Of a stretch of DNA of 64,000 nt, positions 1-56,680 are shown in pieces; the first letter of the stretch is position 1; each line of letters opens with the position of its first letter. Source of the stretch: Microbacteriaceae bacterium (GTDB lineage Bacteria; Actinomycetota; Actinomycetes; Actinomycetales; Microbacteriaceae); NCBI GenBank assembly GCA_024639935.1, contig JAHEFZ010000009.1, positions 3,894 to 67,893 of the forward strand, read 5' to 3'. The position numbers were made by a program, and so were the translations under genes. Below the pieces are notes generated by a model. It saw only the letters and a list, made by a program, of their open reading frames with translations, was not told the DNA's origin and did not search any database.

Positions 1-339
1 GGTATCGGCAGTGACGTCACCGAACACGTGCGGATGGCGACCGACCATCTTGTCGCGAGCAACACGAGCAACATCCTCGATGGTGAACGGGTGGTCGGGG
101 TCGGCAGCCCCCAGGTCTGCGTGAAACAACACTTGGTACAACACGTCCCCGAGTTCTTCGATCATGTGCGTTCGATCGCCCGATTCGACGGCGTCGATGA
201 ACTCGTGACTTTCTTCAATCAAGTATTTGAGCAGCGACTCGTGGGTCTGTTCGCGGTCCCACGCACAGCCGTCCTCACCTCGCAGCCTCGCCATCACGGC
301 GATCAGGGCATCAAGTTCGGGGTGGGTGGGTTCGCTCAT
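1..339 (-). CDS. mazG: nucleoside triphosphate pyrophosphohydrolase MazG, N-terminal part (gene runs off the window start)
   Basis: Reverse-strand translation from the ATG at 339 gives MSEPTHPELDALIAVMARLRGEDGCAWDREQTHESLLKYLIEESHEFIDAVESGDRTHMIEELGDVLYQVLFHADL, which carries the MazG EELGD-L motif. ATGA overlap with the mfd stop. Absent from the ORF track because there is no stop inside the window. The + ORF 28..354 is its antisense shadow. Confidence 0.8.
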   Translation of the reverse strand, partial: MSEPTHPELDALIAVMARLRGEDGCAWDREQTHESLLKYLIEESHEFIDAVESGDRTHMIEELGDVLYQVLFHADLGAADPDHPFTIEDVARVARDKMVGRHPHVFGDVTADT

Positions 340-3300
340 GTGGTTTCACCATAGATGGCGTTGACAAGGTCGCGCACCCATTCGATGAGGTCGTCGCCTT
401 CGCGCGTCGACATCGGGATGAGCGCCGCCGACATCGCCTGCACGTATCGCGCGCCCGAATACAGGCGAACGAGCCTCGCTTGCCGCGAATCGAGAAGCTC
501 CGGTCCAACGATTCTCAGGTTCGGCCCAGCGGGGATGAGTTCGGTGATGCCGAGTTCAGCAATCTGACGGCGAAGCCTGGACACGTTCGCCAACGTCATC
601 ACTTGAGCCGGTGGCTCGCCATAACGGTCGCGCATCTCGTCGAGTTCGGTGTCGATTGCGTCGATGGCTGCCGTCGGGAACGACGCGGCAGACATCTTTT
701 GGTACGCCTCGAGGCGCAGGCGTTCGCTCTCGATGTAGTCCTCGGGAATTCGCGCATCGACGGGAATCTCGAGACGGAGGTCGTTCGACTCGGGGGCGGC
801 GTCGCCCTTGAATTCGCTGATGGCCTCGGAAATCATCCGCAGGTACAAATCGAAGCCGACACCGGCGATGTGGCCGGCCTGCTCGCCACCGAGCAGATTG
901 CCGGCTCCGCGCAGTTCGAGGTCTTTCAGGGCGATCGCCATTCCCCCGCCGAGATCCGAATTCTGGGCGATGGTCTTCAGGCGTTCGTAGGCGGTTTCGC
1001 TCAGTTCGTGGTCGCGGTCATACAGGAAATACGCATATGCCCGTTCGCGCGAACGGCCGACTCGTCCGCGCAACTGGTGCAATTGGCTCAACCCGTATTT
1101 GTCGGCGCGGTCGATGATGAGCGTGTTCGCGTTGGGGATGTCGAGTCCCGTCTCAACAATCGTCGTCGACACGAGCACATCGAATCGGCGTTCCCAGAAG
1201 TCGACCATGACTTTCTCCAGGGCCGCTTCCGGCATCTTTCCGTGGGCGACGGCGATGCGCGCATCGGGGACGAGTTCCGCCAGTTTCGCGGCGACCCCAG
1301 GAATTGTTGACACGCGATTGTGCACGTAGAACACTTGGCCTTCGCGCAACAGTTCGCGCTTGATGGCGGCGGCGACCTGTTCGTCCGAATACTGACCAAC
1401 ATAGGTGAGGACGGGGTGGCGTTCCTCGGGTGGGGTCGCCAGGGTCGACATCTCGCGAATCCCCGCAATCGCCATTTCGAGCGTGCGCGGAATCGGGGTC
1501 GCACTCATCGACAAGACGTCGACGTTCGTCTTGAGTTGTTTCAGCGTCTCCTTGTGCTCAACGCCAAATCGCTGTTCCTCGTCAATGACAACCAGCCCCA
1601 AGTCTTTGAACGAGATGCCCTTCGACAACAGGCGGTGAGTACCGATAACAACATCGAGTGAGCCGTCGGCGAGTGACGCCAACGTGTGTTTCGCCTCGGC
1701 GTCGGTTTGAAACCGCGACAGCGGCGCGAGCGTCACGGGGAACCCGGCGAATCGTTCGCGGAACGTTTCGATGTGCTGACGAACCAACAACGTGGTCGGA
1801 GCAATTATCGCGACCTGCTTGCCCGCCATGACCGCCTTGAACGCGGCGCGAACCGCGACCTCGGTCTTGCCGAACCCAACGTCCCCGGCCAAAAGGCGAT
1901 CCATCGGGATTTCGCTCTCCATGTCGGCTTTGACCTCGTCGATCGTCGTCAACTGGTCGGGCGTCTCGTGATACGGGAACGCGTCCTCGAGTTCGCGCTG
2001 CCACGGTGTGTCGGGCGGGAACGCAAACCCGCGGCTGGCCGCTCGGGCGGCATACAACTTGACGAGCCCGACCGCGATGTCGCGAACGGCCTTGCGCGCA
2101 CGACCCTTAGTCGACGACCAGTCCGACCCGCCCATCTTGGACAGGCTCGGGTCTTCGCCACCGACGTAACGCGAGACGAGCCCCAATTGGTCGGTGGGAA
2201 CGTACAACTTGTCACCGGGAAAACCGCGCTTGCTGGGTGCGTATTCCAAGACCAGGTATTCGCGCAGGGCTTTCTGCTTTGTCCTGGCCGAGATGACAAT
2301 TTCGCGTTCGACGAGTTCGAGAAACTTTCCGATTCCGTGTGTCTCGTGCACAACAAAGTCGCCCTTGGTCAATTGCAGCGGGTCTACGGTCGTCTTCCGT
2401 TTCGACGCGAGGCGAGTCGAGTCGCGCTGATTTCGAGTCTCGCGCCGCCCGAAGAATTCAGCCTCGCTCATGACCGTCAGTGACGCGTCGATGATTTCGA
2501 CACCGTGGTCGACGGTTCCCTGCACCAAATAGGCGACGCCGGTCTCTGGGTTGTCGGGAACGAACTCGACGGGACGGGCAGCGAGGCCCGCCTCGGCGAG
2601 CAGGTCGCGGGCACGTTCGAGCGTTCCGTGACCGGCGGCAACAACAATGACGATCCCCTTCGCCGCGAGCCTCTCGCCAACGAAGTTCACCGCGCCGTCT
2701 GGGTCTCCGACGAACGACGGGATCGGCTTGGATTCGACCCGCTCCTCGAGTCCCGAGTTCAGCGCCGTCATCGTGTAATAGTCGCGACGGGCGACATCAG
2801 CACGGAACTGGTCAAACTCGACGAAATCGGCCTTGTCGACGTTGATGGGCACCACGCCGCCATCCCCAACCTGATTCCAGGCGGCGGCAAGGAATTCTTG
2901 GTTCGTGATGCGCAGGCTCTCGGCTCGGGCGCGAACCCGGTCGGGTCCGACGACAATCACGGTTGCGGAGTCCGGGAAATAGTCCATGAGCGGAACGACC
3001 TCGTCGACGAGGACCGGCAAGAGCGACTCCATGCCGATGACTCCGATGCCCTCGGCGATGGGCTCGGCCATCGACCGCAGAGCCGGAATCGTGTCGGCCA
3101 GTTTCCGCGCCTTGGCCCGCACCGCGGCGGTCAACGCGATTTCGCGCACGGGGGTGATCTCGACCAATTTCACCTGACCGAGCGAGCGCTGGTCGGACAC
3201 CGCAAATTCACGGATCTCGTCGATGTCGTCGCCAAAGAAATCGACACGAACGGGATGGGCCGCGAGCGGGGGAAACACGTCGAGTATTCCGCCTCGCAGG

Positions 3301-3794
3301 GCAACCTCACCTCGGCGCGACACGAGGTCGACGCGTTGGTAACCCAGTTCGACGAGTGACCGTGACACTTCGAGCAGGTCGCGGCGTTCGCCGACCGAAA
3401 TCGTGAGGAGTGGCCGATCCGCTAGGTCAGCGGCGAGGGGCTGAAGGGCGGCGCGCACGCTCGCGATGACGACAAGGCTCTCGATGCCGTTCCAGGTGCT
3501 AAGTGCCCGCAGGGTTGCGATTCGATTCGCGACCGTTTCGCTCGACGGGCTCAGACGTTCATGCGGAAGCGTCTCCCACGACGGAAAAATAAGGGACCGG
3601 ACTCCCCACGTCGCGAGCGACTCTGACATCGCCTGGGCTTCGTTGCCCGTCGCGGTGACCAGCAACACGAGTTTTGGTTCGCGGCACATCGCGGCGATGA
3701 GGGGCGCGCGGGCACCGTCCTCGAGCGACAGAGCCGGGCCTCGAAGTTGGTTCGCGGCATCGACCAACACCGATGCCACTCCCCGAAGACTCAC
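336..3794 (-). CDS. mfd: transcription-repair coupling factor Mfd
   Basis: 1152-aa ORF. Has the CarD-like segment (GDFVVHETHGIGKF), SF2 helicase motifs (GDVGFGKTEVA, DEEQRFG, QLHQLRGRVGR) and the TRCF C-terminal domain. mfd-mazG order is typical of Actinobacteria. Confidence 0.95.
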   Translation of the reverse strand: MSLRGVASVLVDAANQLRGPALSLEDGARAPLIAAMCREPKLVLLVTATGNEAQAMSESLATWGVRSLIFPSWETLPHERLSPSSETVANRIATLRALSTWNGIESLVVIASVRAALQPLAADLADRPLLTISVGERRDLLEVSRSLVELGYQRVDLVSRRGEVALRGGILDVFPPLAAHPVRVDFFGDDIDEIREFAVSDQRSLGQVKLVEITPVREIALTAAVRAKARKLADTIPALRSMAEPIAEGIGVIGMESLLPVLVDEVVPLMDYFPDSATVIVVGPDRVRARAESLRITNQEFLAAAWNQVGDGGVVPINVDKADFVEFDQFRADVARRDYYTMTALNSGLEERVESKPIPSFVGDPDGAVNFVGERLAAKGIVIVVAAGHGTLERARDLLAEAGLAARPVEFVPDNPETGVAYLVQGTVDHGVEIIDASLTVMSEAEFFGRRETRNQRDSTRLASKRKTTVDPLQLTKGDFVVHETHGIGKFLELVEREIVISARTKQKALREYLVLEYAPSKRGFPGDKLYVPTDQLGLVSRYVGGEDPSLSKMGGSDWSSTKGRARKAVRDIAVGLVKLYAARAASRGFAFPPDTPWQRELEDAFPYHETPDQLTTIDEVKADMESEIPMDRLLAGDVGFGKTEVAVRAAFKAVMAGKQVAIIAPTTLLVRQHIETFRERFAGFPVTLAPLSRFQTDAEAKHTLASLADGSLDVVIGTHRLLSKGISFKDLGLVVIDEEQRFGVEHKETLKQLKTNVDVLSMSATPIPRTLEMAIAGIREMSTLATPPEERHPVLTYVGQYSDEQVAAAIKRELLREGQVFYVHNRVSTIPGVAAKLAELVPDARIAVAHGKMPEAALEKVMVDFWERRFDVLVSTTIVETGLDIPNANTLIIDRADKYGLSQLHQLRGRVGRSRERAYAYFLYDRDHELSETAYERLKTIAQNSDLGGGMAIALKDLELRGAGNLLGGEQAGHIAGVGFDLYLRMISEAISEFKGDAAPESNDLRLEIPVDARIPEDYIESERLRLEAYQKMSAASFPTAAIDAIDTELDEMRDRYGEPPAQVMTLANVSRLRRQIAELGITELIPAGPNLRIVGPELLDSRQARLVRLYSGARYVQAMSAALIPMSTREGDDLIEWVRDLVNAIYGETT

Positions 3795-3820
3795 CTCGAC
3801 AGTCTACGGCTGGCCAAAAA

Positions 3821-4399
3821 TCAGGACGGCGAGTGGTACCGCAGTTGCGCCTGGGCGAGGCCCTCGAGAACAATCGCCTCGACGGCACCCGCGGCGTCGG
3901 CGATGAGGCTCGGAACCGTTTCGCGTTCGACCTTGGTGAACGGCTCAAGGACGTGCACCGCCGTGTCCTTCTGTCCTGATGGTCGGCCGACGCCGACACG
4001 AACGCGAAGGAAATCCGCACCAATGTGGTCGATGGTGGAACGCACACCGTTTTGACCCCCGTGACCGCCACCCGCCTTGATGCGAACGGTGTCGAAGTCA
4101 AGGTCGATGTCGTCGTGAATCACGATGACGTGGTCGGGCTCGATGCCGAAGAATTTTGCGAGCTGCCCGATGGGCCCACCTGACAGGTTCATGAAACACA
4201 TCAGCGTCGCAAGAATCACCCGGTCGGTGCCGGGTCGAAATCGACCCTCGGCGACCATGGCGATGGACTTGTGACGCTTTGGCTTCTCGCCGAGCTGTTC
4301 AGCGAGGCTGTCGATCACGCGGTGACCAACAGAGTGACGATGCGCGGCGTAGTCAGGCCCGGGGTTCCCAAGCCCGACTACGAGCCACGCATCGGTCAT
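3821..4399 (-). CDS. pth: peptidyl-tRNA hydrolase
   Basis: 192 aa with N-terminal LVVGLGNPGPDYAAHRHSVGH, the Pth signature. Lies immediately downstream of rplY, as in other Actinobacteria. Confidence 0.95.
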   Translation of the reverse strand: MTDAWLVVGLGNPGPDYAAHRHSVGHRVIDSLAEQLGEKPKRHKSIAMVAEGRFRPGTDRVILATLMCFMNLSGGPIGQLAKFFGIEPDHVIVIHDDIDLDFDTVRIKAGGGHGGQNGVRSTIDHIGADFLRVRVGVGRPSGQKDTAVHVLEPFTKVERETVPSLIADAAGAVEAIVLEGLAQAQLRYHSPS

Positions 4400-4401
4400 G
4401 A

Positions 4402-5016
4402 TTATTCGGCAGCGCCTTCAGCTGCCGGTGCGGCCTCGGCGGCGGCAGGTGCAGCGTCAGTGCCCAGCGACTCGGCACTCGGCACAGCCTGGATAGCGAC
4501 GATGATCGCCTCGGGGTCGAGTTGCAGTTTGACTCCGGCGGGAAGAGTGACGTCTTTCGCCGAGATGTGGGTGTGCTCGAGCATTCCGGTGACGTCGACC
4601 TCGAGGTGCTCGGGAATCTGCGTCGCTTCGGCCTCGACCTGGATGGTCTGGTGCTCGAGCATCGCGACGGTTCCGGGGAACGGGTGACCGATAACCGAAA
4701 CGGGGATGTTGACCGTGACGGTCTCGCCCTTCTTGACGATGACGAGGTCAACGTGCTCGATGATCTGACGGACGTAGTCCTTCTGGACGTCCTTAACGAG
4801 AACGAGTTCTTTCTTGCCGTTCACGTCGAGGTCGATGAGGACGTTCTTGTGACGGACGAGGAGGCTCAGCTCGTGTGCGTTGACCATCACGTGACGCGGG
4901 TCTTCGCCGTGTCCGTAGATGACCGCGGGGACGTTTCCGAGTGCGCGCAGCTTGCGTGCAGCGCCCTTACCGAAGGACGCACGTTCTTCGCCCTTGAGTG
5001 CAAATTGTTCAGCCAT
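4402..5016 (-). CDS. rplY: 50S ribosomal protein L25 / general stress protein Ctc
   Basis: MAEQFALKGEERASFGKGAARKLRALGNVPAVIYGHG is a typical L25/Ctc N-terminus, and the tail is Ala/Glu-rich. I trimmed the start to the internal ATG at 5016. The track ORF extends to 5112 with a non-homologous leader. Confidence 0.9.
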   Translation of the reverse strand: MAEQFALKGEERASFGKGAARKLRALGNVPAVIYGHGEDPRHVMVNAHELSLLVRHKNVLIDLDVNGKKELVLVKDVQKDYVRQIIEHVDLVIVKKGETVTVNIPVSVIGHPFPGTVAMLEHQTIQVEAEATQIPEHLEVDVTGMLEHTHISAKDVTLPAGVKLQLDPEAIIVAIQAVPSAESLGTDAAPAAAEAAPAAEGAAE

Positions 5017-5215
5017 GATGTTGCCTTTCGCGGGGTGGTGACCCCTGGGTTGTGTTTCAACTCGAACGCCGGAAGCGTGAGGAAGACCAGGTCCGCCCAC
5101 CGCGTCGATCACGGACCCGTTGGTCCCTCGCCGAAGTTCGTTCTAACCCTATCGGATAGGCTGAAGGTTGATTTCCACGGGACTTCTTTCGGGGTCCCCC
5201 TCGAACGGAGTGTGC

Positions 5216-6655
5216 ATGTCTCACGCCAACATCGGTGTCGTCGGTCTCGCGGTTATGGGATCGAATCTGGCGCGCAACCTCGCCAGTCGCGAGGGAAACA
5301 GCGTCGCGGTGTACAACCGCTCGTGGGACAAGACGGAACACCTCGTCGAGGCACACCCCGAAGCGAACTTTGTCGCGGCGAAAACGATTCAGGAGTTCGC
5401 CGCGTCGCTCTCGAAACCCCGCACCGCAATCATCATGGTCAAGGCGGGCGCTGGAACTGACGCCGTCATCGACCAATTGTGCGAGGTCTTCGAGCCGGGC
5501 GACATCATCGTCGACGGCGGAAACGCGCTGTTCACGGACACGATTCGTCGCGAAAAAGCGGTCCGCGAGACGGGCATAAATTTTGTTGGCGCGGGCATTT
5601 CCGGTGGTGAAGAGGGCGCTCTGACCGGGCCGTCCATCATGCCCGGCGGTTCGGCCGAGGCGTGGGAGACGCTCGGGCCGATCCTCAAGTCAATCGCCGC
5701 TGTCGTGGACGGCGAACCCTGTGTCACCCACATCGGCACCGACGGCGCCGGCCACTTCGTCAAGATGATTCACAACGGCATCGAGTACGCCGACATGCAG
5801 TTGATCGCCGAGGCGTACGACCTCATCCGTCGCGGCACGGGCAAGTCCCCCGCGGAAATCGCCGACGTTTTCACCGAGTGGAACAAGGGCGAACTCGAGT
5901 CGTACCTGATCGAGATCACCGCCGAAGTTCTGCGCCAGGTCGACGCGTCCACCGGCAAGCCGCTCGTGGACGTCATTCTGGACGAGGCGGGTTCCAAAGG
6001 CACCGGTGTCTGGACTGTTCAGACAGCACTGTCTCTCGGAACTCCTGTGTCGGGAATCGCTGAGGCCGTGTTCGCGCGAGGGCTGTCTTCGCACCCCGAA
6101 CAGCGGACGCTGGCCAGCGGAATGCCTGGCCCCGACTCGTTCACGGTGAAAGACGCCGACGCATTTATCGAGGACGTTCGGCAAGCCCTGTATGCCTCCA
6201 AGATTGTGGCGTATTCACAGGGATTCGACGCGATTCGCGCCGGGGCTGCTGAATACAACTGGAACATCGACCTCGGCGAGGTCGCCCGCATTTGGCGCGG
6301 CGGCTGCATCATTCGCGCACAGTTCCTCAACCGCATAACAGAGGCGTATCGCGCCGACGAATCTCTCGCGCTCTTGATGGCCGCTCCGTATTTTGCGAAA
6401 GCCGTCTCGGGCGCTCAAGCCGCGTGGCGTCGTATCGTCATCGCCGCGACCGAGGCCGGAATCCCGGCCCCCGCGTTCGGATCGTCACTGTCGTACTACG
6501 ACGGACTGCGTGCCGACCGGCTGCCCGCCGCTGTCATCCAAGGCCAGCGCGACTTTTTCGGCGCCCACACTTACAAGCGAGCCGACAAGCCCGGCACGTT
6601 CCACACCCTCTGGTCGGGCGATCGCACCGAGGTCGCGGCGGAAGATACGCATTAG
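5216..6655 (+). CDS. gnd: NADP-dependent 6-phosphogluconate dehydrogenase (decarboxylating)
   Basis: IGVVGLAVMGSNLARNL Rossmann motif. The conserved GHFVKMIHNGIEYADMQLIAEAY and FFGAHTYKR blocks are diagnostic of Gnd. Start trimmed to MSHANIGVVG (the track ORF starts at 5168). Confidence 0.93.
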   Translation: MSHANIGVVGLAVMGSNLARNLASREGNSVAVYNRSWDKTEHLVEAHPEANFVAAKTIQEFAASLSKPRTAIIMVKAGAGTDAVIDQLCEVFEPGDIIVDGGNALFTDTIRREKAVRETGINFVGAGISGGEEGALTGPSIMPGGSAEAWETLGPILKSIAAVVDGEPCVTHIGTDGAGHFVKMIHNGIEYADMQLIAEAYDLIRRGTGKSPAEIADVFTEWNKGELESYLIEITAEVLRQVDASTGKPLVDVILDEAGSKGTGVWTVQTALSLGTPVSGIAEAVFARGLSSHPEQRTLASGMPGPDSFTVKDADAFIEDVRQALYASKIVAYSQGFDAIRAGAAEYNWNIDLGEVARIWRGGCIIRAQFLNRITEAYRADESLALLMAAPYFAKAVSGAQAAWRRIVIAATEAGIPAPAFGSSLSYYDGLRADRLPAAVIQGQRDFFGAHTYKRADKPGTFHTLWSGDRTEVAAEDTH

Positions 6656-6678
6656 ATACGGGTGTAACCCATTCTCAA

Positions 6679-6701
6679 GTGACAGCAGCTCACATTTTTT
6701 T
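6679..6701 (+). terminator. weak candidate intrinsic terminator after gnd (4-bp stem GTGA/TCAC followed by T7)
   Basis: The sequence gtgacagcagctcacattttttt lies 24 nt after the gnd stop. The stem is short, so this is weak. Confidence 0.3.
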
Positions 6702-6823
6702 GGGACCCACTCCCACATCCCTCGCCGTTCCCCTTTTCACAAACGTGGGGAAAAAGGTTTCGGCAGGAATTGAAACTTGCACCAAACGCCTTAGCTGAAG
6801 TGTGAACTTTACGTAATGCAGGG

Positions 6824-7669
6824 CTACCCGGGCAGTTCGGCCCAAATACTCCGAACGTCTTCCAGCGAGTTAAGCTCGCGGAGCGGGGTGAAATCAAAGG
6901 AGTCGCCTTCTTCGTCTAGGTGAATTCGAGTTCCTCTAGCGAAAGCTGGACGCGTAAGTTGGCTGAAGTGTCTCTCGCTGCCAAACTCGACAACATCGAT
7001 CAAGACTGCAATGGTCGACGCCGGTAAGCCCTCATCGTCTTCGATGGATTCATTAGTCCAGCCGTACCAGGGCCTGCCCTTCTTGTTCAAAACCTCTCCC
7101 GTCATAAGGTTGACGATTGCCTCGGGGTTCTCATCGTGAGTAAGTACCCACAACCAAGCCGACCACGAAGTCGATGCAGTTGGAGGGGTCATGCTCCTCC
7201 AACTTTCAGGAATGGAGAATTCTGACAGGAAAGGATGAACTTGTACGTCCTCAGCCTGAACAAAACAACCCCAAATTACGTCCCGGCACCTCGATCGGTC
7301 CTCGCAAAGGAATTGAGCAACTCTGATCGCACCTTTTATAGCTCCGAGATTGAAATCAGCACCTTCACCGGCTGGAACCTCCGACTCAGACATTATGTGC
7401 AACGCCGTTTCTCTGGGAGAGTAAGCCGCTCGTGACCAAATGAACTCGACCAGTTCACCCTCCGCTAGTGCATTTTCACCGAGCCGGTTGAGGAGAATTT
7501 GGTGCTGCTCGTCGTAACTGCTCAAGGTGAGGCAGTCATAATGACCGTCGAAAGGATGGGTGGCCAGTATCGCCCGCTGATTGTCAACCAACTTGAGAAG
7601 TTCAGCACTAACCATCCAAGACAGGATTTTCTTGGCATTACCACTGAGTTCAAAGTCGATTTCAAACAT
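6824..7669 (-). CDS. hypothetical protein (orphan, AT-rich islet)
   Basis: 281-aa ORF with no competing long ORF on the other strand. It lies in a region visibly AT-richer than its flanks. I recognise no family motif. Confidence 0.6.
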   Translation of the reverse strand: MFEIDFELSGNAKKILSWMVSAELLKLVDNQRAILATHPFDGHYDCLTLSSYDEQHQILLNRLGENALAEGELVEFIWSRAAYSPRETALHIMSESEVPAGEGADFNLGAIKGAIRVAQFLCEDRSRCRDVIWGCFVQAEDVQVHPFLSEFSIPESWRSMTPPTASTSWSAWLWVLTHDENPEAIVNLMTGEVLNKKGRPWYGWTNESIEDDEGLPASTIAVLIDVVEFGSERHFSQLTRPAFARGTRIHLDEEGDSFDFTPLRELNSLEDVRSIWAELPG

Positions 7670-7756
7670 ACATAGATTCTCTCATCCACCACCGACAATT
7701 CACGATGTCAGAGGGTGGTCGTAAAGTAACCAATCTCATCGAGAAGGAGGAAGCTT

Positions 7757-8089
7757 ATGTGGATATTTACAAGAGATGGATTCGTGAGCGCGGTTTACAA
7801 GTATGAAGGGGTGCAAGTTCGATCACGCGACAAACAATCGCTGAAGCGCAGTGCGAAATTTTGCGGTGTCGACGTTCGTCATTCACCAATGGCCGACTAT
7901 CCCTATCGGATCACCACGACCAGAGAAAATTTCGCAAATTGGCTGAGCTCTGAAGTCATGGAAATAGATTACTCGAACTTCAAGGCTGAGGTTCAAGTGG
8001 TTCGCGGGCTGAAATTCGTTCGACCGCTTCACTCCGTCTGGGATCTCATGCATGACGTTGAAGACGACAACGCTCGAAACAGTTGTTGA
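7757..8089 (+). CDS. hypothetical small protein (orphan, AT-rich islet)
   Basis: 110-aa ORF preceded by a strong Shine-Dalgarno (gaaggaggaagcttATG). Begins MWIFTRDGFVSAV and contains DYSNFK. Divergent from the 281-aa ORF across 87 bp. Confidence 0.6.
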   Translation: MWIFTRDGFVSAVYKYEGVQVRSRDKQSLKRSAKFCGVDVRHSPMADYPYRITTTRENFANWLSSEVMEIDYSNFKAEVQVVRGLKFVRPLHSVWDLMHDVEDDNARNSC

Positions 8090-8171
8090 CCCGATGTCAC
8101 TGATGTTCGGGCAGTGTGAACTCGATAATCTTGAGTTGTTGAGAATTCCGCGGGAAAAGTGAAGGAGACGA

Positions 8172-9164
8172 TTGATGGAACAAATCAAAAGACTTGCATG
8201 GGATATCTCAAACTGCACCGAAGTGCATAAGGCTCAGGCCGACGGTGCACATCCTTGCCATGGGGTTGTGGACTGGCAGTTCAAGGAATGGCAAAATCTT
8301 GATCCGTCACTGACCGCGGATGAAATATCCAAGAAAAAACTGCAACGCCCCGAAGCTTGGACAGGAGATTTGCAGGGCGCAAAAATTCTTTTCTTGGCGA
8401 GTAATCCGAGTTTTGATTCCAACGAACGATTCCCGACATGGGACGAAACTGGCAAAGCTTGGGATGGTCACTCGTGGGACAAGGAAAGCGTTGTGGCTTT
8501 TGCCTCACACCGATTCGTTGACAAAGGCTCTCGTGACTTCGGTGCTACAGATGGGCCGAATCCTGAAGACTTAGACAGAACCATTCTGGAAGACGGTAAT
8601 GTCTCAGCAAAGGTAAATCATTGGCGATGGGTGCGTAACTTGGCTGCGTTCATCCTTGAAAAATCGGCCGCGGAAACCTCCGCTCACTCTGATTATGTGA
8701 TGACGGAGATAGTGCATTGCAAGTCGACTTACGAGGCCGGGGTTCCCAAAGCCATTCCGAAATGCTCCGAGATGTGGCTAGATCGCATGTGGCAGAACAC
8801 TGGAGCGCGCATAATTATCGTCGCAGGTGCGAAAGCGGGAGAGGAATTTGCTCGGCTTTATGGAGACCAGCTCCCCGACGACTGGGGAAGTTGGACTTCT
8901 AAGCCGTCTTGCCCGTCTAAAGGAAAAGGAACTTGGCCCGCGTCTGTTGATGAACTTGAAAAGTGGGTGGCCGATGATATGTGGGGTGAGACTCAACAGC
9001 GCGCACATACGGCCTCGCTTGAACTCGGAGGCAAGGAACGACTGGTCATTTATTTTGCGCGACCAGGTGGAACAAGTCCGACCGCCCCTTGGAAGAATAA
9101 TTCGCTGTTAGACCAGAGAATCTTAGTTTCTTGGAGAGAAGCACTATCACGCCCCCGAGACTAA
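8172..9164 (+). CDS. hypothetical protein with uracil-DNA glycosylase superfamily-like motif layout (tentative)
   Basis: 330-aa ORF with SD gaaggagacgattgATG. Motif order is KILFLASNPS (aa 71-80; compare G-I/M-N-P-G of the MUG/SMUG families), then VMTEIVHCKS...C..WL...ARIIIVAGAKA (compare family-4 UDG NvvkCRP..C..wL...P.vIv.lG..A), then LVIYFARPGGTS (compare HPS/NPSG motif 2). Judged by eye only. Confidence 0.45.
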   Translation: MMEQIKRLAWDISNCTEVHKAQADGAHPCHGVVDWQFKEWQNLDPSLTADEISKKKLQRPEAWTGDLQGAKILFLASNPSFDSNERFPTWDETGKAWDGHSWDKESVVAFASHRFVDKGSRDFGATDGPNPEDLDRTILEDGNVSAKVNHWRWVRNLAAFILEKSAAETSAHSDYVMTEIVHCKSTYEAGVPKAIPKCSEMWLDRMWQNTGARIIIVAGAKAGEEFARLYGDQLPDDWGSWTSKPSCPSKGKGTWPASVDELEKWVADDMWGETQQRAHTASLELGGKERLVIYFARPGGTSPTAPWKNNSLLDQRILVSWREALSRPRD

Positions 9165-9340
9165 GACGCTCCACGAGCTTTCGTAAACGAATTGATAAAG
9201 TTCGAAAAAGGTGCGTTAATCTCAAATGTCTGACGAATTATTCGTTCCAAACAATTTGTCTAACGGCATCCTCGCGCAACGTTTCGAAATACAATGACCG
9301 TTGTCAATAATAGCGCTTCGGAATCTTCTAAAGTAGTGGC

Positions 9341-10660
9341 ATGAACGATTCGCTCCGCACCCCAACCACAAATGCCGCCGTCCGAACGGCCGACATTGGC
9401 AAGGTCTTTCATTCGTGGTCGGCCCAGTCGACTCTCGCGCCGTTCGTTATCGCCGGGGGTAAGGGCTGTGAGGTCTGGGATTACGAGGGCAACACGTACC
9501 TCGACTTCTCGAGCATGCTCGTCAACGTCAACATCGGGCACCAGCACCCCAAGGTTGTCGAGGCGATCAAGGCGCAAGCCGACATCCTCACCACTGTCGC
9601 TCCCGCTCATGCGAACAACATGCGCGCGCTTGCAGCCCAAAAGATTCTCGACCACGCGCCCGACACGTTCGCGCAGGTGTTCTTCACTAACGGTGGCGCA
9701 GACGCGAATGAAAACGCCATCCGCATGGCTCGCATTCACACGGGTCGCGACAAGGTCATCTCGTTCTACCGCTCGTATCACGGCAACACCGGTGCGGCCG
9801 TGGTCGCAACCGGCGACTGGCGCCGCATCCCCAACGAATATGCTCGCGGACACCTTCATGTCTTTGGCCCGCACCTTTACCGAACCGAATACTGGTCGAC
9901 CAGTCCGGAAATGGAAACAGAGCGCGCCCTGCACCACCTCGAGCGCGTCATCCAGGCACAAGGTTCCGAATCGATCGCGGCGTTCCTTATTGAGACGGTT
10001 CCCGGAACCGCGGGAATCCTGACCCCACCGCCCGGTTTCCTCAAGGGTGTTCGCGCTCTCGCAGACAAGTACGGCATCATCCTGATCCTCGACGAGGTCA
10101 TGGCCGGTTTCGGTCGAACCGGCGAGTGGTTCGCGTTCGATGCTTTCGATGTCGTGCCCGACCTCATCACGTTCGCCAAGGGCGTCAACTCGGGTTATGT
10201 TCCGGTCGGTGGCGTCATCATCTCGGGCGACATCGCAAAGACCTTTGATGACCGCGTCTTCCCCGGTGGACTGACCTATTCCGGCCACCCGCTCGCCGCC
10301 GCCAGCATCGTCGCCGCGATCACCGCGATGGAAAACGAAGGCGTCATCGAAAACGCTCGCTCCATCGGAGCCAACGTTCTAGGCCCTGGACTTCGCGAAT
10401 TGCAGGCGAAACACGACGTCATCGGCGACGTCCGCGGGTCCGGAGTCTTCTGGGCACTCGAGTTCGTCACCGACCGCGAGGCGCGCACCCCCGTTGATGC
10501 CGCCTGGATGGGGAAACTTCGGACAGCACTATTCGCCGCCAAACTCGTTCCGTTCATGGCCGACAACCGTCTGCACGTCGTACCGCCGTGTGTTGTCACC
10601 GAGGACGAGGCTCGTCGCGGACTGGCAATCATCGACCAGGTGTTGGCTGAGCTGAAATAG
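9341..10660 (+). CDS. class-III (omega) pyridoxal-phosphate aminotransferase
   Basis: 439 aa. FTNGGADANENAIRMAR, LDEVMAGFGRTGEWFA and the PLP-lysine context ITFAKG are typical of the aspartate-aminotransferase-family class III enzymes. Confidence 0.9.
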   Translation: MNDSLRTPTTNAAVRTADIGKVFHSWSAQSTLAPFVIAGGKGCEVWDYEGNTYLDFSSMLVNVNIGHQHPKVVEAIKAQADILTTVAPAHANNMRALAAQKILDHAPDTFAQVFFTNGGADANENAIRMARIHTGRDKVISFYRSYHGNTGAAVVATGDWRRIPNEYARGHLHVFGPHLYRTEYWSTSPEMETERALHHLERVIQAQGSESIAAFLIETVPGTAGILTPPPGFLKGVRALADKYGIILILDEVMAGFGRTGEWFAFDAFDVVPDLITFAKGVNSGYVPVGGVIISGDIAKTFDDRVFPGGLTYSGHPLAAASIVAAITAMENEGVIENARSIGANVLGPGLRELQAKHDVIGDVRGSGVFWALEFVTDREARTPVDAAWMGKLRTALFAAKLVPFMADNRLHVVPPCVVTEDEARRGLAIIDQVLAELK

Positions 10661-10682
10661 CCTCCGCCCGTCAAACGGCACA

Positions 10683-11417
10683 ATGGCACCTATGGACTCC
10701 TCCGAATTCAGCACGTTCCTCGCGTCACGTCGCAGCACCCGCGACTTCTTGCCGAAGCCGGTTCCGCAGAAAGCTATCGACGCGATTCTGACCGACGCGA
10801 TGACGGCCCCGAGCTGGTCGAACACCCGCCCTTACATGGTCGCGGTGGCGACGGGCGAAGTGCGCGATCGGATTTCTACCGAATTGCAGCGCCGGTGGGC
10901 GATTGCCGGCCACGCGATGCGTGGCTCGTGGTGGGACAAGGTGCTGTTCTTCCTCAAGCGCGACGGTCTGCCAACAAGCGACTATCAGGTGTGGCGACCG
11001 TACCCGAAAGACGTGCAGCCGCGCAGCCACAAGATCGGCCGTGACCTCTACGCGCACATCGGCGTCGCTCGCGGAGACAAGGTCGGTCGCGACGAACAAT
11101 GGGCACGAAACTTCGACATGTTCGGTGCCCCCGTTGCAATCTTCGTGTTCACACACAAGGGATTGCCGACCTACGCGGTATCCGACGCCGGGCTGTTCAT
11201 GCAAAACCTGATTTTGTCCGCCCACGCCCGCGGGCTCGGAACCTGCGCCCAGGGCGCTCTCGCCCTGTGGTCTGACCCAGTGAAAGCGGAATTCGACGTG
11301 CCGAAGCAATACAAGTTGCTGTGCGGCATCGCGCTGGGTTATCCCTCGAAAGACAAGGTCAACGGATTCCGTGCCGAGCGTCTGCCGATTGGTGACATCA
11401 CCCTCAACCCGCGTTAG
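10683..11417 (+). CDS. nitroreductase family protein
   Basis: 244 aa with N-terminal RRSTRDFLPKPVP...I..IL..A..APSWSNTRPY and C-terminal LGTCAQGAL, both typical of the NAD(P)H nitroreductase fold. Confidence 0.85.
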   Translation: MAPMDSSEFSTFLASRRSTRDFLPKPVPQKAIDAILTDAMTAPSWSNTRPYMVAVATGEVRDRISTELQRRWAIAGHAMRGSWWDKVLFFLKRDGLPTSDYQVWRPYPKDVQPRSHKIGRDLYAHIGVARGDKVGRDEQWARNFDMFGAPVAIFVFTHKGLPTYAVSDAGLFMQNLILSAHARGLGTCAQGALALWSDPVKAEFDVPKQYKLLCGIALGYPSKDKVNGFRAERLPIGDITLNPR

Positions 11418-12496
11418 CGGTCGCCATACAGCGCGGTGGCAAACGCGCGGTTGACGAAGAGCCGATCCCGACCCACCTTGTGCGATTCCAGCACACCAAT
11501 CGCCGCGAGCCGATCGAGCCACTTAGTTGCGGTTGGGCGGCTTACCTGGCATCGCGTGACGACATCGCGAATGCGCGAATACGGTTGCGTGAACAGCACC
11601 TCGATCAGGGCGGAATTAGTGGCCCCAAATTCGTCGCGAATTCGATCGCGAACGTCGAGATGAGCATGAAGAATGCGGTTGACCGTCGCCGTTGCCGACA
11701 CCGCCGTGGTCTCGACTCCACGGACAAAGTAAAGAATCCAGTCGTGCCATTCTCCCCGAGCGGTGACGCCCATCAGACGCTCGTAATACTCCGCCTTTGT
11801 GGCGATGAAGTATCGCGACAGATACAGCACGGGCATCTTAAGCAACCCCCACTCGGCGAGCAACAACAGGTTGAGGATGCGGCCCGTTCGACCATTTCCA
11901 TCGGGGAACGGGTGAATCGCCTCAAATTGATAGTGCGCAACGGCAAGGCGAACGAGTGGGTCGACCTCGTCGCGCCGGTGGATGTATTCCTCCCAGTTCG
12001 ACATGAGCCGAAGCACATTGTCACGACCGGTCGGAGGCGTGTAGGTCACGGTTTTTGTCAGCGGGTTTCCGATAAACGTCCCAGCATCAGTGCGAATCGC
12101 GGTGTCGTAGCCGAGGATTGCCGAGCAGATACTCGTTGCTGTGCTCGTCGAAAGCGGCCGCTGACCAATCGAGTCGAACCCAACTCGTAGCGCCGTGCGA
12201 TACCGCAGGGCTTCGCGCGTTGCGGGGTCTGCACCCGCAAGCCCCTGTATATCCGCCTGGAACATCTCGTCGTTCGTCGTGACGATGTTCTCAATCTCGG
12301 AACTGGCTTGTGCCTCGACAACGGGAATCGCGTTGATTAGAACCGCAGGGTTCGGGATGTATCGGCTTCGAGTGTCGAGTTCCATCAGTGCGACCCGCGC
12401 GGCGGTCGTCGCCCGCAACACCTCGATCGTCTCGACGACGAGGTTGGGTGGGATCAAGGGCAGGTCGTTGTGTGCGACCTCTGCGCGGAAAGACAT
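11414..12496 (-). CDS. Fic family protein (AMPylase-type, class II with N-terminal inhibitory motif)
   Basis: 360 aa. Fic active-site motif HPFPDGNGRTGR (HxFx[DE]GNGRxxR). Upstream SSEIEN matches the inhibitory [ST]xxxE[GN] helix. The C-terminal part looks winged-helix-like. Its stop overlaps the nitroreductase stop by 4 nt (convergent). Confidence 0.9.
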   Translation of the reverse strand: MSFRAEVAHNDLPLIPPNLVVETIEVLRATTAARVALMELDTRSRYIPNPAVLINAIPVVEAQASSEIENIVTTNDEMFQADIQGLAGADPATREALRYRTALRVGFDSIGQRPLSTSTATSICSAILGYDTAIRTDAGTFIGNPLTKTVTYTPPTGRDNVLRLMSNWEEYIHRRDEVDPLVRLAVAHYQFEAIHPFPDGNGRTGRILNLLLLAEWGLLKMPVLYLSRYFIATKAEYYERLMGVTARGEWHDWILYFVRGVETTAVSATATVNRILHAHLDVRDRIRDEFGATNSALIEVLFTQPYSRIRDVVTRCQVSRPTATKWLDRLAAIGVLESHKVGRDRLFVNRAFATALYGDR

Positions 12497-12528
12497 GTCA
12501 ACAGTCTATTGACACGTTCGGTAAACCT

Positions 12529-12553
12529 GTAAAAAATTGGACTGATTTTTTAC
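12529..12553. repeat. perfect 9-bp A/T-only inverted repeat (gtaaaaaat-N7-attttttac)
   Basis: Read directly. It lies 5 nt downstream of the EamA stop and upstream of the Fic start. It could be a weak terminator or an operator. Confidence 0.5.
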
Positions 12554-12557
12554 ATGT

Positions 12558-13433
12558 CTACGATTTGAGGCGTGTGCGCACCGCGAGAGCAGCACACGCG
12601 ATTACGACGGCACCACCGACGGCGATATCGAGGCTGATGACTTCGCCGAGCAACAATGCCGCCCACACGATCGACAAGACTGGCTGAATCAGTTGCACCT
12701 GGCTCACCGTGGTGATGGGGCCGATGGCGAGGCCGCGATACCACCCGAAAAACGACAAGTACATCGACACCGCGCCAAGGTACACGAATGCCGTCCACTG
12801 CCCCGGCGTCGCGGTGATGGGCTGGGTAGCGACCGAGACGGCAGTCATGATGATCATCACGGGCGACCAGATAACGAGCGTCCACGAAATCGTTTGCCAC
12901 GACCCGAGTTCACGCGAGACCACGGCACCTTCGCTGTAACCGATGGCCGAGGTGACGACCGCCCCGACCAACAGCAGGTCAGCCCAATCAAAGTGACCGA
13001 ATTCGCCGGCAGCGACGCTCGCGAACGAAATCGCTGCGACCGCTCCGAGTATCGCGAATACCCAGAATCGTCCGGGCACTCGCTCGTTGGTTCGAATTAC
13101 CGCGACCACTGCGGTTGCGGCGGGTAACAAACCGATGACAACCGCCGCATGTGAGGCGGGAACCGTCTCGAGCGCAAATGATGTGAAATACGGAAAGCCC
13201 ACGACAACACCAGCACCAACCACAACCAGGTGACGGAACTGCCGGGCGTTCGGCAGTTTCTGGCGGGTTGCGATCAAGACGGTGGTGGCAAGTATCGCCG
13301 CGAGAACCGCTCGACCCGAGCCGATAAACAGAGGGCTCATTCCTTCGACTGCGACGCGAGTTAGCGGAACGGTGAACGAGAACGCGAGAACTCCGAGGAA
13401 CCCCCAGCCGAGTCCCGAGCGTCGATTGGTCAA
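12558..13433 (-). CDS. EamA/DMT family transporter
   Basis: 291 aa, about 10 hydrophobic segments, with the two-repeat EamA-like organisation. Confidence 0.85.
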   Translation of the reverse strand: MTNRRSGLGWGFLGVLAFSFTVPLTRVAVEGMSPLFIGSGRAVLAAILATTVLIATRQKLPNARQFRHLVVVGAGVVVGFPYFTSFALETVPASHAAVVIGLLPAATAVVAVIRTNERVPGRFWVFAILGAVAAISFASVAAGEFGHFDWADLLLVGAVVTSAIGYSEGAVVSRELGSWQTISWTLVIWSPVMIIMTAVSVATQPITATPGQWTAFVYLGAVSMYLSFFGWYRGLAIGPITTVSQVQLIQPVLSIVWAALLLGEVISLDIAVGGAVVIACAALAVRTRLKS

Positions 13434-53313: not shown

Positions 53314-54966
<1,653 letters not shown>

Positions 54967-54969
54967 TTA

Positions 54970-54996
54970 TTGGCACTCACGGTATGCGAGTGCTAA
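54970..54996 (-). promoter_or_regulatory. CIRCE (HrcA operator) element 1
   Basis: TTGGCACTC-ACGGTATGC-GAGTGCTAA versus the consensus TTAGCACTC-N9-GAGTGCTAA (1 mismatch). It lies 37 nt upstream of the groEL start. Confidence 0.88.
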
Positions 54997-55004
54997 CTCT
55001 CAGT

Positions 55005-55031
55005 TTGGCACTCACAGTAAGAGAGTGCAAA
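55005..55031 (-). promoter_or_regulatory. CIRCE (HrcA operator) element 2
   Basis: TTGGCACTC-ACAGTAAGA-GAGTGCAAA (2 mismatches to consensus). In tandem with element 1. Confidence 0.8.
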
Positions 55032-55046
55032 TTGACTGTGGAAAAC

Positions 55047-56072
55047 CTAGCGGCGCTTTGCTTCGAAATAACCGCTCGTCGTCGGAACTAACTCGATCCA
55101 CGTTCGACCAGGGGCCAGTTTAATAGTTTCGCCATTCGCCAAAGTGAAGACAGTCATCGAATCTGGTTGCGACTTAGTCCAGATTGCCTCGACTGTCTTG
55201 CCACCGGTGGAAATCCACGCGACACCTGTGCCGACCACGCGGGCGTGAGGGACATATCCATACTCACTCGACTCATCGACTAATTGCGCAACGACATTTC
55301 GAGCGGTCAATTGCTGCTGATTCTGGTCAACATCAGCTTGTCCGCCCGCCTGGAGACGGCCGTACATGCCTGATTCAGAGTCGAATTCCCACGAGGGGGA
55401 ATTGTAGGCGGAGAACGACGTGACCAATCGCCCGGCTTCCTTACCCTGCTCCATGGCAGTCGGGGTGGCCCCGTCACCAGCAAATTCAAATGCTGGGGCC
55501 GGCGGAGCGAGGTCAGAGAGTGTTTCCATCAAACTTTTTGCACGAACAATCACGTCGTGCGGAGAAACCATGGTGTCTGAGCGATAGATGTAGGCATCCG
55601 TGCCCGATTGCCCGTGAATAACGTTGTCCAATCCGGTATCAATCATCATCTGAACAAACCGTTGCTGACCACCGGAATACGTGATCGCGCCGCCAAACGG
55701 CGCTGCGATTTCAGGATCCATGGGCCGAATTGAACGAATTGGCCCGATCTCCGTCGGAATCACCGAATGCCATACGACCAGGTAGCGGGAAAGCCCTCCT
55801 TCGACAAGTTCCTCGAACACGATGTCCGCCTCATTAAGTCCGACTTGGGGACGTGCCTCGGGACTATTGTCAATCTTTGCCATTAACACCGGCTGGTCAA
55901 GTGAACCAACGGGAACGGGAGCACCCGAGAGTGGTGCGTTTTCCACTGCCGCCGGATTTGCGGACGGTGTGGAATTCGGGTCGAGGTCTTGCCCAGACAA
56001 CTGATTTCCGCCACAACCCGCAAGGGATGCGACCACGACCGCGCTCAGGGCGATGAAGAATTTCTTTTTCAT
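55047..56072 (-). CDS. DUF3048-like lipoprotein
   Basis: [22 protein letters not shown] lipobox. The block [43 protein letters not shown] matches my recollection of DUF3048. Confidence 0.75.
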
Positions 56073-56096
56073 TCGAATACGTCCAATCCGAGTGGG

Positions 56097-56654
56097 TTAG
56101 CGAACAAAGTCTTTTCCTACCAGCACAGTAACGGTCGCGCCGGGGTAAGTATCGGATTGTTTCACCGCCGCGATTCCGAGGCTGTCCGCGACACTCGTTG
56201 CGAGCGAAAGGTTTCGGTTCGGGCCATACACAACAACGCTGACCGTGATGGTGGAATCCGCCGCATCCGCAGTCGAAATGTTCGGCCAGCCCTGAGTCGT
56301 CAGGATAGCGGCAACGTCCTCAGCAAGCGTGGCTGATGTCGTCCCGTTGAGCACCGTGATGGTGATTTGTTGAAGTTCCTCCTCGGTGAGGAGTGTCGGG
56401 TCAACGCCCGTGATCTGTGGAGCCGGAGCCGCCGTGATACCCAACGCCGAGATATCGATTGGCTGAAGGTTCCGTGCATCGAGAACTGCGACGCCCGCCA
56501 TCGCGGCAAGAATCAGCCCCGCTGTTACCCCAATCGAAATGAGTGTCGTTACCCACCAAGGTCGGCGCGAAATGGGCTGGCGGTGAGCCCCCGCCCGCCC
56601 AAGGTAGGAACTCTCATCGTCAAATCGGTCCTGTGGTTTTTTTGCCACGTGCAC
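56097..56654 (-). CDS. LytR C-terminal (LytR_C) domain membrane-anchored protein
   Basis: One TM segment (WWVTTLISIGVTAGLILAAMAGVAV). Followed by ITVLNGTTSATLAEDVAAILTTQGW...VVVYG, typical of LytR_C domains. Confidence 0.72.
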   Translation of the reverse strand: MHVAKKPQDRFDDESSYLGRAGAHRQPISRRPWWVTTLISIGVTAGLILAAMAGVAVLDARNLQPIDISALGITAAPAPQITGVDPTLLTEEELQQITITVLNGTTSATLAEDVAAILTTQGWPNISTADAADSTITVSVVVYGPNRNLSLATSVADSLGIAAVKQSDTYPGATVTVLVGKDFVR

Positions 56655-56680
56655 GTCACATCCGTCTGCAGTCGTTCGGC

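Follow-up and report, generated by a model that had tools for sequence, protein, structure and literature searches.

A foreign low-GC cassette of three genes encoding a candidate anti-phage DNA glycosylase in a Microbacteriaceae bacterium

This study concerns a 64,000-bp stretch of DNA from a Microbacteriaceae bacterium (contig JAHEFZ010000009.1), called the window below, and a short segment of low guanine-plus-cytosine (GC) content that lies in it between gnd and an aminotransferase gene. The segment carries three open reading frames (ORF1, ORF2 and ORF3), the last of which is predicted to encode a protein of the uracil-DNA glycosylase (UDG) superfamily. An earlier note, made from the letters of the sequence, had described the segment as an AT-rich islet of three orphan ORFs of 281 amino acids (aa; minus strand), 110 aa and 330 aa (both plus strand), and had proposed an old or non-canonical acquisition and an undescribed defence system. 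The three ORFs were found as it had placed them.

Results

Features of the locus

The features of the segment are collected in Table 1. Both plus-strand ORFs are preceded by a Shine-Dalgarno sequence of the GGAGG type; the earlier note had called these sequences strong. With the TTG at 8172 as the start, ORF3 has 330 aa; the database protein starts at the ATG at 8175 (329 aa), which is the likelier start. Promoters in 7670-7756 are presumed from the gene arrangement only; a consensus promoter scan of this region found nothing above chance.

Table 1. Features of the segment between gnd and the aminotransferase gene (positions in the window)
Feature	Position	Strand	Size	Basis or remark
Acquired segment, allelic replacement	6652..9309		2,658 bp	gnd/aminotransferase junction; BLASTN against L013 and GC content
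ORF1, TY-Chap2 family	6824..7669	-	281 aa	Pfam PF22553; divergent from ORF2
Divergent intergenic region	7670..7756	.	87 bp	Presumed promoters for ORF1 and ORF2-ORF3
Shine-Dalgarno sequence of ORF2, GAAGGAGGAAG	7744-7754	+		Read from the sequence; GGAGG type
ORF2, small alpha/beta protein of a large unnamed family	7757..8089	+	110 aa	
Shine-Dalgarno sequence of ORF3, GAAGGAG	8160-8166	+		
ORF3, predicted Fe-S DNA glycosylase-like effector	8175..9164	+	329 aa	Pfam, alignment with 1ui0, AF2 model and Foldseek, invariant residues

Composition and origin of the segment

The GC content of the segment was 0.500, the minimum among all 2,658-bp intervals of the 64 kb (mean 0.588, standard deviation 0.020) and about 4.4 standard deviations lower than the mean. 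Sliding GC values were 0.47-0.52 at about 6.75-9.25 kb against 0.60-0.65 on either side, and the two lines that the earlier note had counted by hand proved exact (41.7% at 8281-8340, 63.3% at 5401-5460). GC at third codon positions (GC3) was 0.553 in ORF1, 0.523 in ORF2 and 0.495 in ORF3, compared with 0.773 in gnd, 0.745 in the aminotransferase gene and 0.73-0.78 across mfd, pth, gnd, aminotransferase, nitroreductase and prs. The only other stretch with intervals of this length below 0.56 was at about 54100-56900 (0.556-0.559), a much milder dip than the islet.

BLASTN against a relative (L013, 85.6% nucleotide identity) aligned positions 119-6651, broke at 6651/6652 and resumed at 9310; the ends so defined lie 4 and 31 bases from the limits read by eye (6656 and 9340). 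At the same site L013 has 1,436 bp with an amine-oxidase gene instead of the islet, and in L013-L017, whose aminotransferases share 90% identity or more with that of the window, the gene between gnd and the aminotransferase gene encodes an amine oxidase of 463 aa. In relatives with gnd at least 90% identical (L012), unrelated genes fill the interval down to the nitroreductase gene, namely a 176-aa ORF, a gene for a 1,369-aa RCC1/WD40 protein and a 585-aa ORF. L013 also carries an extra, uncharacterised 336-aa gene between the aminotransferase and nitroreductase genes, which in the window are separated by just 26 bp (10665-10690). The segment is horizontally acquired, foreign and strain-specific, and the comparison with L012 and L013 marks the whole interval from gnd to prs (6652-13428) as a hypervariable hotspot of the lineage.

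The islet genes are also rare: their 90%-identity clusters had 3-5 members, compared with 137 for gnd, 186 for the aminotransferase and 102 for SoFic, a gene further along the interval. Because GC3 is unameliorated and the islet genes are rare, the acquisition appears to be recent, and the word old in the earlier note is unlikely to hold. In other hosts the GC content of the triad of genes (0.43-0.53) matches that of its flanks, and a donor of about 50% GC is therefore plausible for the window. As to the vehicle, we agree with the earlier note that the islet has neither integrase nor transposase; the nearest tRNA is 15.9 kb away, no Rfam family lies in or beside the islet, a search for flanking direct or inverted repeats found nothing beyond chance, and terminator and promoter scans stayed at chance level. 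The window comes from an uncultured freshwater actinobacterium, and exact copies of its proteins were found in lake metagenomes and on an NCBI contig from a metagenome-assembled genome (MAG).

ORF3 and the UDG superfamily

The putative DNA-acting enzyme that had been suspected in the 330-aa ORF turned out to be related to the UDG superfamily. The AlphaFold2 (AF2) model of ORF3 had a mean predicted local distance difference test (pLDDT) value of 90.1 and a predicted template modelling (pTM) score of 0.90. When the model was compared with the PDB by Foldseek, the top 35 matches all belonged to the UDG superfamily, led by family 4, family 5 and UdgX (best 1ui1, E 9e-4; probability up to 1.0; target-normalised TM-score 0.54-0.62, with 0.62 for 4zbx). 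On this model ORF3 is predicted to be an alpha/beta protein of the UDG fold.

The conserved residues point in the same direction. In an alignment of 49 family sequences the invariants were C15, C29, C183, C198, S77-N78-P79-S80, E179, H182 and R290. The family profile picked the Thermus family-4 UDG 1ui0 and laid 'MTEIVHCKS...C' on 'ITNIVKCRP...C', with C183 and C198 coinciding with both cysteines of segment 77-100 of 1ui0 and the invariant Glu179 aligned to Asn80, the uracil-reading Asn. Motif A (S77-N78-P79-S80) comes directly after strand 72-75, in the register of the LNPG motif of Brig1 (see below), and the position of motif B, placed by eye, reads A-R290-P-G-G, with an invariant Arg and no His. 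ORF3 probably carries a 4Fe-4S cluster, to judge from its cysteines, and Glu179 argues for a modified, perhaps cytosine-derived, base as the target rather than uracil.

ORF3 is no orphan. Its family has more than 150 homologue clusters at word-index sensitivity, none annotated by Pfam, and most of them come from Nanopelagicaceae-type MAGs and freshwater metagenomes. No relative was found in 50,697 phage genomes, in IMG/VR or in plasmid collections. Four members (P0027, P0031, P0036 and P0041; 471-489 aa) carry a TIR_2 domain at the N-terminus, and in L007 the ORF3 homologue lies amid AAA_15, GmrSD, DndB and SNF2 genes. The commonest neighbour was a gene for a histone deacetylase (HDAC)-like protein (Hist_deacetyl), present in 23 of 55 loci (L007:7070-7876 and 22 others within L059-L106), usually directly downstream of the ORF3-family gene and often followed by ORF2. 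The other neighbours in these loci were ORF2 (16), DSPc (13) and vWA (7).

Two side observations concern this family. The TIR-ORF3 fusions (loci L190-L192) adjoin genes for proteins that combine DUF6884, DUF7669/DUF7662 and a GIY_YIG_2 nuclease. A pair of small genes of about 128-171 aa and 167-228 aa, in many cases with stop and start codons that overlap, lies directly upstream of some members of the ORF3 family (L006:5131-6011, L008:7380-8391, L061, L062, L080, L084, L085, L104 and L107-L109); neither matched Pfam, and they are a possible further accessory pair for the glycosylase.

ORF3 and the Brig enzymes

Anti-phage action has been experimentally shown for three kinds of UDG-like enzymes, and the abasic sites that they leave block phage replication. 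Brig1 is a UDG-superfamily enzyme that excises alpha-glucosyl-5-hydroxymethylcytosine from T-even DNA; among known structures it is matched best by the family-4 UDG of S. tokodaii, at whose Asn82 position Brig1 has an essential Glu147 (Hossain et al. 2024, PMC11078745). The native locus of Brig1 and that of a Nocardioides homologue adjoin an ADP-ribosylglycohydrolase (ARG) gene, and the homologues are mostly actinobacterial (PMC11078745). Brig2 is UDG-like and acts against modified thymidines (Getz et al. 2025, bioRxiv 10.1101/2025.10.29.685425). Brig3 is UDG-like as well and adjoins an ARG gene; it works together with BapA, which is encoded in the same operon and removes glucose from the base (bioRxiv 10.64898/2026.02.25.707755). 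The ARG genes beside Brig1 and Brig3 were dispensable for defence against T4 (PMC11078745; bioRxiv 10.64898/2026.02.25.707755).

For the comparison the Brig1 sequence was taken from the supplement of the paper and its numbering (Y121, N145, E147) was verified. The register between ORF3 and Brig1 placed PEAWTGDL on PEPYxGDL, SNPS on LNPG and 'TEIVHCKS' on 'FELYPWHS', and Glu179 fell on Glu147 of Brig1 whether single sequences or families were aligned. The homologue sets of the two proteins did not overlap. Membership of ORF3 in the Brig1 family was considered and rejected at the sequence level (0.5 bits; hhalign 19%). ORF3 appears from these alignments to be a parallel lineage of the UDG superfamily, with the hallmark Glu of Brig1 and with cysteines that Brig1 lacks. 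It may be regarded as a new, enlarged family of that superfamily, having been compared with Brig1 by sequence and with Brig2 and Brig3 by description.

ORF2 and its network

Searches of Pfam, NCBIfam, PHROGs and PADLOC gave nothing for ORF2, and NCBIfam and PHROGs gave nothing for ORF1 and ORF3 either. It is nevertheless far from an orphan: 188 homologues were found at word-index sensitivity, and an exhaustive profile search returned 6,176 representative clusters (50% identity) at E <=1e-3, of which 2,920 at E <=1e-10. The domain was N-terminal in nearly all proteins among the 150 best matches listed. The AF2 model (pLDDT 92) has three strands, a helix, a strand and three helices. Against the PDB it gave nothing significant (best E 0.43, with weak matches to type III secretion system (T3SS) chaperones at probability <=0.35), and the sequence profile gave only noise; in BFVD two phage proteins had the ORF2 fold at TM 0.74-0.77. 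A divergent TY-chaperone unit was considered as an identity for ORF2, and a profile comparison with ORF1 homologues was negative. ORF2 is the slowest-evolving and most conserved gene of the cassette, and ORF1 the fastest. The alignment invariants of ORF2 are polar and aromatic (R22, R24, D25, D47-Y-P-Y-R51, W62, K76, W95 and D103), a pattern that would be expected of a ligand pocket or an active site, not of a mere structural protein.

In 44 loci the recurrent neighbours of ORF2 were DSPc (18), vWA (16), ARPP-1 (11), HDAC-like (10), TY-Chap2 (8) and NrtR-like Nudix-wHTH (7), together with recurrent HD_4 and calcineurin-like phosphatases, SNF2 helicases and HIRAN. A Pfam census of 150 neighbour ORFs, for 38 loci in genomes, gave DSPc 16, vWA 10, ARPP-1 9, HDAC 8, NrtR_WHD 6, HD_4 4 and calcineurin-like phosphatase 3. 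On Burkholderia and Aeromonas plasmids an ORF2::NUDIX fusion gene stands directly after an ARG gene, with a divergent NrtR-like/WYL regulator and a YbjN chaperone. ARG was absent among the 25 families listed beside ORF2 in actinobacterial loci, and tblastn with an ARG query found none in the 64-kb window. The window likewise has no R-P, HD or calcineurin-like phosphatase, Nudix/WYL regulator, vWA or ARPP, which are present at related loci. The recurrent partners of ORF2 matched no PADLOC model. From these neighbourhoods ORF2 appears to be a recurrent component of ADP-ribose-linked conflict systems, and the cassette of the window is a minimal, ARG-less form of its network.

Relatives of ORF2 were also found in phages, 119 in IMG/VR (loci L110-L189 among them) and a few in GenBank phages. 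Within 6 kb of the IMG/VR homologues there were no host partner domains, and ORF2 was always solitary. In freshwater actinophages it occupies a conserved place just upstream of genes for endolysin-like, peptidoglycan-binding and large terminase proteins. Actinomycetia phage DSL-LC01 (L019) has a homologue at 5001-5354, and Morganella phage Mecenats66 (L020) has one at 4001-4372 that adjoins a NUDIX hydrolase gene. The phage homologues had no match in PHROGs. Their placement fits a viral decoy or sponge, or a general role in nucleic-acid handling.

ORF1 and the recurrence of the triad

ORF1 matched the Pfam family TY-Chap2 (PF22553) at E 3.9e-10 with 40.3 bits, above the cut-off of 27, over residues 16-89; the profile covers only the N-terminal third of the protein. 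Its homologues at other loci have the same precomputed match, and the ORF1 profile found nothing among PDB sequences. TY-Chap2 was defined as a predicted peptide-binding chaperone of ARG-centred conflict systems, which are themselves computational predictions (Iyer, Burroughs, Anantharaman, Aravind 2022, PMC9503650). ORF1 is accordingly predicted to be a chaperone that binds peptides and belongs to the T3SS/YbjN superfamily, and with it the last of the three genes loses the status of orphan. Homologues of ORF1 stand divergent beside ORF2 homologues in L008, L009, L011, L021, L022, L031, L039, L196 and L197.

The complete layout, with TY-Chap2 on one strand and ORF2 followed by ORF3 on the other, recurred in four further contexts with different flanks (identities to the window are given for ORF1/ORF2/ORF3). 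In L196 (56/73/67%) it comes after SF1-helicase-like and DUF805 genes, and in L197 (65/68/74%) it lies between a resolvase-like C-terminus and an MmeI-type restriction-modification gene. In L008 (33/60/43%) it contains two inserted small ORFs and has N6_Mtase, Mrr and HIRAN genes as neighbours. In L009/L010 (29/57/28%) it is followed by genes for a sigma-like protein, DSPc, TY-Chap3-HNH_repeat and SNF2. The homologues do co-occur outside this genome, contrary to one outcome that the earlier note had named as refuting its proposal.

Fusions tie the partners together as well. ORF2 is fused to an ORF1-like TY-Chap2 domain in P0311 (BLASTP E 8e-13 with ORF1 residues 7-248), to TY-Chap3 in P0317, to a sigma-70 region-4 helix-turn-helix in P0335 and to NUDIX in the plasmid loci. 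In P0300, P0316 and L039 (L039:4744-5859) it is fused to a domain of about 240 aa, here called GINPS, which is also encoded as a separate gene beside ORF2 (L023:7113-7955, L036:6231-7034, L038:8687-9427). The motifs of GINPS resemble those of Brig1 (GINPS vs GLNPG, HLDLxxWAT vs FELYPWHS; alignment A5). Its profile was not significant against ORF3, had 9.7% probability against Brig1 and matched no PDB sequence. GINPS may be another family of defence glycosylases, a lead at the level of motifs only.

The third gene after the divergent TY-Chap2 and ORF2 pair varied between genomes. In the window, L008, L009, L196 and L197 this place is taken by the putative Fe-S UDG. L039 has a Cas4/RNase-H-like nuclease in addition to the fused GINPS domain, L021 and L031 encode a protein of 200-216 aa that bears an HD...EGK motif, and L011 and L022 have no third gene. 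The 200-216-aa protein may be restriction-endonuclease-like, by this motif only, and one sequence in the alignment of these proteins, from L041, is an unrelated HD-domain protein. The pair behaves as a conserved core with an exchangeable third gene. Conflict systems are usually built in this way, with a core that is kept and effectors against DNA that can be exchanged.

Other genes of the variable interval

A SoFic gene (11414-12496, minus strand; Fic domain) matched the PADLOC SoFic model at E 1.3e-107 and adjoins an EamA-type transporter gene (12558-13433, minus strand). The two form a 2-kb insertion (11406-13428) relative to L013, which has 69 bp there. The variable interval that holds the islet therefore has another defence gene, SoFic, of a known kind and at a distance of 2.2 kb.

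A 342-aa antisense ORF (9260-10288, minus strand) overlaps the high-GC aminotransferase gene and was judged spurious. On the short metagenome contigs L004 and L005, gene callers took it in place of the aminotransferase gene, a miscall that matters for context comparisons based on gene calls alone.

Discussion

We consider it rather probable that the segment is an acquired anti-phage cassette in which ORF3 excises a modified base from invading DNA and TY-Chap2 and ORF2 regulate or target ORF3. The effector would be ORF3, with its UDG fold and its probable 4Fe-4S cluster. By flipping a non-canonical base out of the invading DNA and cutting the N-glycosidic bond, it would leave abasic sites that block replication of the phage, as with Brig1, Brig2 and Brig3. 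ORF1 and ORF2 would interact physically, and this core, which is kept while the third gene is swapped between genomes, would control or target the effector. At loci that carry the HDAC-like gene, this gene could act in the manner of BapA and strip an acyl group ahead of the glycosylase.

Several results weigh against this reading. The match of ORF3 to the Pfam UDG domain (PF03167) is sub-threshold (E 6.4e-4, 20.3 bits against a cut-off of 24.3). The ORF3 HMM (profile hidden Markov model) scored Brig1 at 0.5 bits, and hhalign of the ORF3 family against 35 Brig1 homologues reached a probability of 19% (E 1.2e-3, 137 columns) in a consistent register. The His-Pro-Ser of motif B appears to have become Arg-Pro-Gly, and catalysis could be altered or lost. 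None of the three genes matched a model of PADLOC-DB 2.0 at E up to 0.1; this database dates from 2023 and is older than the Brig enzymes. ORF2 has no structural or functional analogue and is common in phages, and its role as regulator or targeter is a guess. Furthermore, the link between ORF2 and ORF3 is facultative: ORF2 was on the contig in 12 of 51 metagenome ORF3 loci, and in 7 of the 25 having at least 1.4 kb downstream, while among the 38 ORF2 loci of GTDB representative genomes ORF3 was found in none and TY-Chap2 in four. Finally, the HDAC-like deacetylase, the commonest partner of ORF3 elsewhere, is absent from the window.

A different function is conceivable for the same genes, namely a countermeasure to ADP-ribosylation after the model of Iyer and Aravind, in which the cassette, after a phage has attacked, repairs or senses ADP-ribosylated macromolecules of the host. 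The part of ORF2 would be to bind ADP-ribose or a target that carries it, and that of TY-Chap2 to hold modified proteins; ORF3 would replace ARG, removing ADP-ribosylated bases from DNA or cleaving the N-glycosidic link between ADP-ribose and base. We regard this as doubtful. The position of ORF2::NUDIX directly downstream of ARG on the plasmids is in its favour, as are the company that ORF2 keeps (DSPc, vWA, ARPP-1, HDAC, NrtR_WHD, HD_4 and calcineurin-like phosphatase) and the TIR fusions, which tie the ORF3 family to NAD+ chemistry. However, the 64-kb window lacks ARG, phosphatase, Nudix/WYL regulator, vWA and ARPP, and we know of no UDG-fold enzyme that acts on ADP-ribosylated bases. The definition of TY-Chap2 within ARG-centred systems speaks for it too (PMC9503650), but the ARG-centred model is itself a prediction, and ARG was dispensable beside Brig1 and Brig3.

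Less probable still is a toxin-antitoxin or abortive-infection module, in which a self-toxic ORF3 would be restrained by ORF2 (in the role of an antitoxin or a Ugi-like inhibitor), by TY-Chap2 or by both, and released on infection; the solitary phage homologues of ORF2 would then be anti-defence inhibitors. A small, highly conserved ORF2 directly upstream of the enzyme gene in one operon is what such a module would look like, and the contrast between an ORF2 that is abundant and solitary in phages (the 119 in IMG/VR) and an ORF3 that is absent from them agrees with it, as does the slowest evolution of ORF2 beside the fastest of ORF1. But ORF2 mostly occurs without a UDG-like partner and with phosphatases, vWA, ARPP or HDAC instead, many ORF3 homologues have no ORF2, and an inhibitor would not usually be joined covalently to enzyme domains, as ORF2 is.

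It is very improbable that ORF3 is an ordinary accessory DNA-repair UDG beside two unrelated hypothetical genes of a variable region, without any system: its nearest solved structures are indeed repair UDGs of families 4 and 5 and UdgX, and streamlined freshwater Actinobacteria often have variable repair complements, but the triad is kept as a unit in five contexts, down to 28-33% identity, its partners are joined by domain fusions, the uracil-reading Asn has become Glu, other family members have TIR fusions and defence-island settings, and the distribution is sporadic and the composition foreign.

Returning to the anti-phage cassette with a base-excising ORF3, its interest lies first in the scarcity of comparable enzymes. 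Anti-phage DNA glycosylases are very recent (Brig1 in 2024, Brig2 in 2025, Brig3-BapA in 2026), and those described so far belong to a few sequence families. ORF3 would add a separate, populous and probably Fe-S family, found mainly in abundant freshwater Actinobacteria whose defence is poorly charted. Its two dedicated partners suggest that a glycosylase effector need not act alone but can be subject to regulation or targeting, and the cassette would tie Brig-type enzymes to the predicted ARG/TY-chaperone network. With three genes in 2.7 kb, it offers a tractable entry to that network.

ORF2, a widespread unnamed domain common to hosts and phages, is the piece most worth characterising. It is tentatively conceivable, although on balance unlikely, that ORF2, which occurs alone or at the N-terminus of larger proteins, is a sensor or targeter hub domain for a small ligand or a modified nucleic acid in a large class of immune systems, and that its phage homologues are decoys or sponges. 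If so, the class would span variants containing ARG, HDAC, ARPP, Nudix and UDG, and the cassette of the window, composed of sensor, chaperone and glycosylase, would be its minimal version and the easiest to reconstitute.

Comparison with known systems

Repair UDGs share the fold. Family 4 (UDGa), family 5 (UDGb) and UdgX resemble ORF3 in the predicted structure, and the C-terminal Cys pair of ORF3 aligns with 'TNIVKC...C' of 1ui0. In family-4 UDGs the N-terminal cysteines have the spacing C-x2-C, while those of ORF3 are 13 residues apart. ORF3 also differs from these enzymes in motif A, which is S-N-P-S with an Asn like that of MUG/SMUG and not G-E-A-P-G, in the change of the base-reading Asn to Glu, and in the apparent change of the motif B His to Arg. 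It has about 130 extra residues (330 vs about 190), and its context is mobile and not that of a housekeeping gene.

To the ARG systems the cassette is related through its partners. ORF1 is a TY-Chap2 protein, of a family defined there (PMC9503650), and ORF2 homologues occur inside the canonical form, in which a divergent NrtR/WYL regulator faces YbjN-ARG-ORF2::NUDIX. The accessory set of ORF2 is likewise that of these systems (R-P phosphatase, vWA, ARPP, HD, calcineurin-like phosphatase, helicases and HIRAN), and the architecture of a conserved core with variable effectors is common to both. The cassette in the window differs in having no ARG, phosphatase or Nudix/WYL regulator, and that paper names no UDG or glycosylase and, in its available portion, no domain corresponding to ORF2 (PMC9503650).

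The Brig enzymes are the closest parallel to ORF3. They share with it the UDG fold, with archaeal or Thermus family-4 UDGs as best structural matches, and the low-GC, sporadic, defence-island settings, mainly in Actinobacteria. With Brig1 it has in common the Glu at the base-reading position and a stretch P-E-x-W/Y-x-G-D-L followed by an x-N-P-x motif, with Brig3-BapA an accessory gene in the same operon, and with Brig1 and Brig3 the links to ARG neighbourhoods. The differences are that ORF3 has four invariant cysteines missing from the Brig1 sequence, that it is about 70 residues longer, and that its partners are TY-Chap2 and ORF2 and not an ASCH-like hydrolase. The proposal of an undescribed system therefore stands in part: defence glycosylases of the Brig type and the TY-Chap/ARG network had already been published, whereas the ORF3 family and the triad are new. 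The cassette joins two known kinds of element, Brig-type defence glycosylases and the predicted ARG/TY-chaperone systems.

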